DNA of 64,000 bases, taken from Firmicutes bacterium CAG:460. Lineage in GTDB: Bacteria; Bacillota_I; Bacilli_A; RF39; UBA660. The notes beneath the pieces were generated by a model. That model was not told the DNA's origin. It did no database searches and worked only from the letters and a program-made list of their open reading frames with translations. Made by a program: the position numbers and the translations under genes. Location of the stretch: NCBI GenBank assembly GCA_000437355.1, contig FR899762.1, positions 45,395 to 109,394 of the forward strand, in the 5' to 3' direction. Shown here piece after piece: positions 34,098 to 34,237 of the stretch (the first letter of the stretch is position 1; each line of letters starts with the position of its first letter).

Positions 34098-34126
34098 TTG
34101 ACAAACTTCAAAAAAAATATTAAGAT
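34098..34126 (+). promoter_or_regulatory. Consensus promoter of candidate sRNA-1
   Basis: TTGACA-17 nt-TAAGAT. Confidence 0.55.
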
Positions 34127-34132
34127 TATACT

Positions 34133-34237
34133 AGCATGATACAAGTCATGCTAATAACCTGATCTCTCTTACGAATCTCAATGTGAAGAGATCAACCAAA
34201 ACCCCCTGAAGGACCTCTTAGAGAGGTCCGCTTTTTA
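34133..34237 (+). ncRNA. Candidate trans-acting sRNA-1 with a C-rich single-stranded linker
   Basis: 5' hairpin 34132-34153 (8 bp). Hairpin 34160-34194 (8 bp). Linker CCAAAACCCCCUGAA at 34196-34210. Terminator GGACCTCT/AGAGGTCC at 34211-34229 plus T-run. No ORF and no downstream plus-strand gene. Confidence 0.5.

Follow-up and report, generated by a model that had tools for sequence, protein, structure and literature searches.

A recG-linked small RNA gene with a conserved, exposed C-rich linker in uncultured gut Bacilli

Small RNAs (sRNAs) whose C-rich motifs pair with the G-rich Shine-Dalgarno (SD) regions of mRNAs are known from RsaE and RoxS (PMC6158497, PMC5419742), and RosA has been described as a G-rich sponge RNA of RoxS (PMC8216469). 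Here we describe sRNA-1, whose gene block at 34098-34237(+) of a 64,000-nt stretch of Firmicutes bacterium CAG:460 (the whole stretch is referred to as the window) comprises a promoter, two hairpins, an unpaired C-rich linker and an intrinsic terminator. sRNA-1 resembles RoxS/RsaE (RF01820) in being a stand-alone RNA of ~100 nt with its own promoter, hairpins and intrinsic terminator, in carrying unpaired C-rich sequence directed toward G-rich SDs (a prediction here), in having a G-rich RNA partner (RosA for RoxS, the loop of a second RNA, sRNA-2, as its candidate counterpart here), and in belonging to Hfq-independent low-GC Firmicutes (PMC6158497, PMC8216469, PMC5419742). On the other hand, sRNA-1 bears a single long C-rich tract, CCAAAACCCCCUG, including C5, in place of the several UCCC/CCCC motifs of RoxS/RsaE, and is syntenic with recG, unlike RoxS/RsaE. 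The RF01820 covariance model found no match in the window at its gathering score and none at E <= 10 on 33900-34700 under permissive filters; judged by sequence and structure, sRNA-1 is not a RoxS/RsaE family member. An initial annotation of the locus had proposed the RoxS/RsaE mode of action, and the accessible C-rich tract makes this the most reasonable mechanism even though family membership does not hold. On balance we consider it probable that sRNA-1 is a trans-acting riboregulator whose exposed C-rich seed acts on G-rich RNA in the manner of RoxS/RsaE.

The type I antitoxins of IstR-1/tisB, OhsC/shoB and Zor/Orz show a different kind of likeness: as in sRNA-1, there is short imperfect complementarity to the mRNA leader of a small hydrophobic peptide, and the leader has an SD-sequestering structure. 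However, IstR-1, OhsC and the Zor/Orz antitoxins adjoin and co-occur with their toxin, whereas sRNA-1 lies 17 kb from the peptide gene and is a core gene of at least 120 species; moreover, the 34-aa peptide in question is strain-specific, and the predicted pairing opens its SD. Thus, sRNA-1 does not show what defines a type I antitoxin, namely being encoded at or next to the toxin and co-occurring with it. The layout of promoter, hairpin and terminator is also shared by the Rfam families DUF2693 RNA (RF02956) and PrrF (RF00444), but membership in either was rejected, with scores of 19.2 bits (gathering score 81.3) and 27.3 bits (90), respectively, both of which derived from the promoter and generic hairpins.

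Architecture and conservation of the sRNA-1 gene

By direct reading, the promoter at 34098-34126(+) consists of a -35 box TTGACA (34098-34103), a 17-nt spacer and a -10 box TAAGAT (34121-34126), and it looks like a plain near-consensus promoter of the sigma-A type. The predicted transcript of ~105 nt (34133-34237(+)), with its 5' end placed from the -10 box and its 3' end from the T-run, contains hairpin 1 (34132-34153(+), 9 bp, 5 modelled pairs), a composite hairpin 2 (34160-34194(+), 8+5 bp, 6 modelled pairs, conserved CUCUUACGA...GUGAGAG), the single-stranded C-rich linker or seed AACCAAAACCCCCUGA (34195-34210(+)) with its invariant core AACCCCCUG at 34200-34208, and a GC-rich terminator stem of 8 bp (34211-34229(+)) followed by T5 at 34232-34236. 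The minimum free energy (MFE) of the 113-nt sRNA-1 stretch was -37 kcal/mol, compared to -16.8 +/- 3.4 for dinucleotide shuffles (z = -6.0; 0/200 shuffles equally stable). The linker is unpaired in the predicted MFE fold, and the unpaired probability of the core was 0.96 in the window, with a median of 0.86 over 100 family members. No open reading frame (ORF) lies inside the block and no plus-strand gene follows it; downstream, the minus strand carries a decayed helix-turn-helix (HTH) pseudogene and recG. The initial annotation had described this layout, the lack of an ORF and of a downstream plus-strand gene, and a single-stranded linker, and we recovered every feature at the position it had given. 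Within the window sRNA-1 is the sole full copy (covariance model R1, 78 bits). The segment 51102-51200(-) was considered as a second copy or pseudogene and rejected, its 15.6 bits coming from the seed alone.

The linker 18-mer CAACCAAAACCCCCTGAA was scanned exactly in one genome per GTDB species, and at least 120 contigs matched. Except for two chance matches (loci L122 and L057), they are gut metagenome-assembled genomes (MAGs) labelled as uncultured Bacilli, Tenericutes, Mycoplasma, Mollicutes or Erysipelotrichaceae, whose hosts include humans, rabbits, goats, sheep, deer and mice; we suspect that these bacteria belong to the GTDB order RF39. Among 92 distinct sRNA-1 bodies the hairpin sequences diverge widely while the architecture is constant, and TTGACA together with a TAnnAT -10 box is retained in essentially all members regardless of the flanks. 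Ten metagenomic loci retrieved via the neighbouring DUF1848 protein (81-97% identical) all contained sRNA-1 (10/10), which was 100% identical from promoter to linker in each and varied in the terminator stem by compensatory substitutions; full identity of the sRNA-1 body extended to loci in which the protein reached just 81-88%.

Both hairpins were recovered by RNAalifold on a plain MAFFT alignment, with compensatory changes at 11/11 pairs. In an alignment of 99 distinct sequences guided by the covariance model, 95.8% of cells were paired against 76.8% in shuffles, double-change cells numbered 190 against 37.5, and sliding the partner by 1-3 columns abolished the pairing signal; since this alignment had been fitted to the covariance model, these values call for caution. 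Compensatory changes occurred in 5/5 modelled pairs of hairpin 1 (99.8% of cells paired) and in 6/6 of hairpin 2 (92.5% of cells paired).

Because the first scan had selected on the linker, a second sample was drawn independently of it from metagenome contigs retrieved through sRNA-2, which gave 36 distinct sRNA-1 homologues. In all of them the core AACCCCCUG was invariant, and the upstream ACC(A/G)AA was mostly retained, with linker variants such as CAACCGAACCCCCUG, GUAACCAAAACCCCCUG and CUCAAACCCCCUG; conservation of the linker in relatives, a check suggested along with the initial annotation, was thereby confirmed in homologues found by an independent route.

The recG gene lies directly upstream of sRNA-1 on the same strand in 51/77 loci having at least 2.5 kb of upstream flank. 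The seed begins at a median of 130 nt past the recG stop, and therefore the sRNA-1 promoter follows the recG stop codon. Going by this arrangement of the loci, the ancestral position of sRNA-1 is directly downstream of recG. In the window's lineage (L001-L010, L031, L261/262) sRNA-1 is inverted and converges on recG.

Rfam 15 held no family for sRNA-1 or sRNA-2 at gathering or permissive thresholds, BLAST of sRNA-1 against phage and plasmid collections matched the promoter alone, and a search of the literature on the linker sequence and RF39 small RNAs found nothing relevant. The family is new to Rfam, while the kind of RNA is already known. The comparative evidence (family, covariation and conserved promoter) strongly backs the claim of a stand-alone sRNA gene, and the gene is almost certainly real. 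We found no description of riboregulation in the literature for these uncultured reduced-genome gut Bacilli (Mollicutes-like MAGs common in humans and herbivores). Here sRNA-1 and sRNA-2 provide a way in, with a seed that is invariant, an RNA partner that is predicted and mRNA sites that can be tested.

Candidate partners of the C-rich tract

We infer that sRNA-1 acts by base-pairing and that its targets are to be sought among G-rich RNAs. As a constitutively promoted, structured, trans-acting RNA of ~105 nt, it would have as its working part the unpaired C-rich tract UCAACCAAAACCCCCUGAAG between hairpin 2 and the terminator, which would base-pair with G-rich single-stranded RNA. Likely partners are SD regions of the GGGGG type and, in most species, the UCAGGGGG loop of sRNA-2. 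In the window genome, the plausible targets are the leader of a 34-aa ORF, whose SD pairing is predicted to open, and accessible G5 SDs such as those of a HEPN-like gene and a WYL-HTH gene, which pairing is predicted to occlude; the G5 SD sites gave cofolding free-energy differences (ddG) of ~-12 to -13 kcal/mol.

The best partner of the linker in the window is UUCAGGGGCUUUUGG at 51132-51146(+), in the leader of a 34-aa hydrophobic ORF (51168-51272) just 5' of its SD GGAAGGAGG. This site pairs 14/15 with the linker and forms the window's best duplex (-22.4 vs -18.4 for the next), and no other site in the window matches the 15-mer with up to 2 mismatches, ~0.01 being expected by chance. The initial annotation was right about the pairing and about its improbability by chance. 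It had also proposed that pairing masks the SD, which our cofolding does not support: UUCAGGGGCUUUUGG lies in the apical portion of a hairpin that sequesters the SD by pairing it with CCUCUUUUCA, and this hairpin is predicted to open, i.e. activation. The site falls within a 167-nt indel (50997-51162) flanked by 13-nt direct repeats TAC(T/A)TATGAAGAA; the segment is present in 4/10 strains with identical rplL and absent in 3, the whole region being missing from 3 more distant relatives. By tblastn over the collected loci, homologues of the 34-aa peptide were found in the same species only; its DUF6728 match was below threshold (16.6 bits vs a cut-off of 27), and it matched no recognised small membrane toxin family. 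We regard the leader of the 34-aa ORF as a plausible sRNA-1 target, probably as activation, though at somewhat less than an even chance.

From the 167-nt segment an upstream small ORF receives its terminator and the 34-aa ORF its promoter, leader and SD; strains without the segment retain the 34-aa ORF with no SD. At 51258-51388(-) there is a promoter-like TTGAAG-17-TAAAAT with TG, and a terminator at 51281-51258; together they could yield a candidate cis-antisense RNA of ~100 nt that overlaps the 34-aa ORF at its 3' end, in a layout like that of type I toxin-antitoxin loci. Just downstream (51411-51470), the 3' module of the ORF occurs a second time in decayed form.

The other candidate target, GGGGGUUUU at 32129-32137(-), is the SD (-12..-4) of a gene that starts at 32125 and encodes a 554-aa pEK499_p136/HEPN-like protein. 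Its 9/9 pairing with the linker, as initially annotated, was confirmed (duplex -16.5 kcal/mol, cofold ddG -12.2). This duplex takes about rank 9 of 25,588 windows in the 64 kb, level with the SD of the WYL-HTH gene, and at least 8 sites in the 64 kb pair just as well as the HEPN-like SD. Its energy falls at about the 1st percentile of 778 start regions from related loci, and it is therefore good but not unique. The minus-sense RNA of the window contains 14 further G5 runs, and G5 SDs precede 4 genes in the window; as evidence, the 9-mer is much weaker than the 15-mer. GGGGGUUUU(U) is kept in HEPN-like orthologues at 76% and 51% identity, but GGGGGAAAA stands in its place in a paralogue of 37% identity whose genome carries identical sRNA-1. 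As for the protein, its homologues carry the Pfam label PF18736 (pEK499_p136, HEPN family) from precomputed annotation; the 554-aa protein itself had no significant match in PADLOC, PDB or Pfam-A, and for this reason the label of a defence effector, given to it by the initial annotation, is unproven. That the HEPN-like mRNA is a target of sRNA-1 seems doubtful to us.

The leader TAAAATATAGC-N7-GGGGG-N7-ATG is shared by the HEPN-like gene (at 32137-32160(-)) and a giant ORF (at 28516-28545(-)), a hint that promoter and leader follow one design in both, with G5 SDs and very short 5' untranslated regions. Homologues of the giant ORF, which starts at 28516, are ~1290 aa long and contain Metallophos.

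The two candidate targets had led to the proposal that sRNA-1 serves specifically as an RNA antitoxin or translational brake of the HEPN-like effector and the 34-aa membrane peptide, masking the ribosome-binding sites of both. Consistent with it are the 9/9 match on an SD kept in both orthologues, the 14/15 match beside the peptide SD, and the distance of 2 kb between sRNA-1 and the HEPN-like gene in this lineage. It is, however, made unlikely by the ancestral tie of the family to recG and by its presence in at least 120 species, most of which have no HEPN-like cluster nearby, by the L260 locus, where the cluster occurs without sRNA-1 in the vicinity, by the lack of uniqueness of the SD (at least 8 equal sites per 64 kb; ~1% of start regions pair equally), and by the strain-variable leader site, at which pairing is predicted to expose the SD. 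In addition, the paralogue has GGGGGAAAA despite identical sRNA-1, a cis-antisense RNA candidate is present at the peptide locus itself, and the 554-aa protein is not recognised as a defence or toxin protein. We consider such a dedicated role improbable. More generally, with an anti-SD-like seed, complementarity to the SD of a nearby 'defence' gene is weak evidence.

sRNA-2 (36622-36755(+)), likewise a conserved C-rich sRNA, is located between PFOR and recG, upstream of and divergent from recG, and consists of a TTGACA-17-TAAGAT promoter, 2 hairpins, a single-stranded tract UCAACCCCUUUUUAUUCUUUU and a terminator (36724-36745) with a T-run. At least 119 metagenome contigs contain sRNA-2. Its terminator loop is UCAGGGGG in 87/127 distinct homologues and contains a G-run in 108/127, and UCAGGGGG is the exact 8-nt complement of CCCCCUGA in the invariant sRNA-1 core. 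Given these numbers, the position of both genes flanking recG in many species and the precedent of the RosA/RoxS sponge (PMC8216469), the two RNAs might form a sponge module, in which the seed and the G-rich loop titrate each other and one of them exerts most of the mRNA regulation. Such a module cannot operate in the window genome, because the window sRNA-2 has the loop UUCG, without G-rich sequence. Moreover, in 42 cognate pairs no co-variation beyond the core linked the 3' flank of sRNA-1 to the loop of sRNA-2 (p = 0.5), and the same motif could be a DNA-level feature. We judge it unlikely that such a module is the main function of sRNA-1.

It could also be that the invariance of the tract reflects a protein-binding site, with sRNA-1 binding or sequestering a protein (KH- or S1-type candidates) through its C-rich tract without base-pairing. 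Such a role would suit the ~18 nt that are nearly unchanged over many species, which exceeds the typical need of a seed, as well as the strong near-consensus promoter and the failure to find a conserved mRNA target. Yet synteny points to no protein partner, recG alone being conserved alongside, the conserved complement in the sRNA-2 loop favours RNA-RNA pairing, and no similarity to known protein-sponge RNAs was found in Rfam. The probability that we assign to protein binding is small.

Several further observations weigh against riboregulation by base-pairing. In ~0.84 Mb of flanking sequence we found no mRNA target family conserved across species; the starts of recG, PFOR, DUF975, DUF1848, S41 and integrase genes have no seed complementarity, and the remaining strong matches in start regions show no functional theme. 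Full-length complements of the seed are rare because the base after a G5 run is mostly A and seldom U. At the peptide leader, the site is buried in a hairpin, and the net cofold ddG is for this reason only -3.7 kcal/mol, with the SD left free in the predicted complex. The UUCG loop of the window sRNA-2 and the absence of co-variation in the cognate pairs count on the same side, as does the fact that transcription of sRNA-1 is deduced from DNA.

The 3' end of sRNA-1 as an integration site

Tyrosine integrases are known to insert at the 3' ends of structured RNA genes, namely ssrA, ryeB/SdsR (Salmonella), ryeE/CyaR (E. coli) and tRNA genes, ryeB and ryeE being the sRNA genes among these targets (PMC3603311). 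The sRNA-1 locus is similar to the tRNA, tmRNA, ryeB and ryeE sites in that the element provides a replacement 3' end and that a direct repeat of the gene's 3' part stands at the far junction (PMC3603311). What sets the sRNA-1 locus apart from these precedents is that a new sRNA family of uncultured Bacilli is targeted, that the crossover core falls on the presumed functional seed (CCCCCUGAAG), and that many insertions are small modules of an integrase with Mob_Pre or replication genes, or remnants of such modules.

The 3' end of sRNA-1, i.e. CCCCCUGAAG plus the terminator, serves as the bacterial attachment site (attB) of tyrosine-integrase elements, be they mobilizable elements or prophages. 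In the window this segment spans 34202-34236(+), with the core CCCCCTGAAG at 34202-34211, the terminator hairpin at 34211-34229 and the T-run at 34232-34236. A tyrosine integrase gene (Phage_integrase + Arm-DNA-bind_4) occurs within 3 kb on the 3' side in 22/76 loci with enough flank; it follows the terminator closely, in opposite orientation to sRNA-1, starts ~120 nt after the seed, and is often accompanied by genes for an AAA_25/DnaB-like protein, a Mob_Pre relaxase, Fic or AbiEii-like proteins. Integrase-adjacent sRNA-1 was also found in two IMG/VR contigs (L305 and L347) and in a locus of the window's own lineage (L004). Direct repeats of CCCCCTGAAG, hairpin and T-run were detected at +959 to +4624 in seven loci (L065, L055, L112, L051, L076, L046 and L123), and those of L051 bracket an integrase gene and a remnant of a Mob_Pre relaxase gene. 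Furthermore, identical blocks of terminator and downstream sequence, e.g. ATTCCCCTCGAGAGAGGGGAATACTTTTGTTTATAAGG, are joined to unrelated sRNA bodies. Since the element brings a replacement 3' end, the sRNA-1 gene stays intact. A 14-mer scan of viral contigs was too unspecific, 2 of the 120 matches listed being genuine.

In 35/118 loci the contig breaks off no more than 250 nt past the seed on its 3' side, compared to 9 loci on the 5' side; a downstream rRNA operon was considered as the cause of these breaks and rejected. The sRNA-1 gene is a practical marker that accounts for the MAG contig breaks here, and it marks an integration hotspot whose variable cargo includes SocA/Panacea, Fic, AbiEii-like, relaxase and acetyltransferase genes. 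In the window's genus, the cargo between the sRNA-1 3' end and recG is SocA/Panacea in L003, an acetyltransferase in L007 and an integrase with AAA_25 in L004, while the window has only the decayed HTH gene.

These data raise the alternative that the whole sRNA-1 block is a DNA attachment site and bidirectional terminator maintained by mobile elements, with no functional RNA. Its favourable evidence is the clear use of the 3' part as attB, its carriage by the elements, and the contig breaks there. However, only CCCCCTGAAG and the terminator are duplicated at island ends, whereas the host side retains the promoter, the two covarying hairpins and the upstream linker half, all conserved in the absence of any element, and we consider this alternative very improbable. 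The 51132 site in the peptide leader was also examined as a remnant of an attachment site and rejected: it includes the upstream CCAAAA and has no terminator, whereas island-border repeats begin at CCCCCTGAAG.

A broader scheme would tie these features together: sRNA-1 and sRNA-2 would be a regulatory pair bracketing recG, with the sRNA-2 loop titrating the seed, and mobile DNA would have adapted to sRNA-1 in two ways: integrases would use the junction of seed and terminator as attB, and horizontally acquired small-ORF cassettes, the 34-aa ORF among them, would have evolved leaders with an SD-locking hairpin that only the host sRNA-1 opens. If this were true, a core sRNA would license acquired toxin-like genes rather than silence them. 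We offer the scheme as a speculation that is rather unlikely as a whole.

An inverted repeat AAACCCTT-TATTTAT-AAGGGTTT (TTTATAAGGGTTTG) was seen ~45-70 nt after the seed in L018, L020, L030, L038, L045 and others, recurring just past many sRNA-1 terminators of differing sequence; it may be a terminator of the integrase gene or a recombinase binding site.

Neighbouring genes in the window

On the minus strand, sRNA-1 is flanked on one side by a DUF1848 gene, a gene for an HTH and transmembrane protein, the gene for the 554-aa protein and an S41 peptidase gene, and on the other side by the decayed HTH pseudogene, recG and PFOR. sRNA-1 adjoins this DUF1848-HTH-HEPN-like-S41 cluster only in the window's lineage as defined above. 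The HTH pseudogene (34250-34585(-)) consists of remnants of an XRE-family gene with stops and frameshifts and its own terminator (34251-34268), and fills the island slot between the sRNA-1 3' end and recG.

Homologues of the DUF1848 protein (gene at 33095-33982(-)) are 291-295 aa long, and its true start is most likely 33982, 16 codons inside the listed ORF. The protein fits the PADLOC model RTasDUF1848, and no reverse transcriptase is encoded nearby; an exact look-up of the window's DUF1848 protein returned no record.

The rplL-rpsL interval (49060-51557), in which the 34-aa ORF lies, is a strain-variable insertion containing the WYL/HTH regulator, a 306-aa protein, a prepilin-like 48-aa ORF and small ORFs; in L134, rpsL directly follows rplL. 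Finally, recG most likely starts at ATG 36577, preceded by the SD AAGGAGG, and not at the longer mechanical ORF start, its homologues being 663 aa long.

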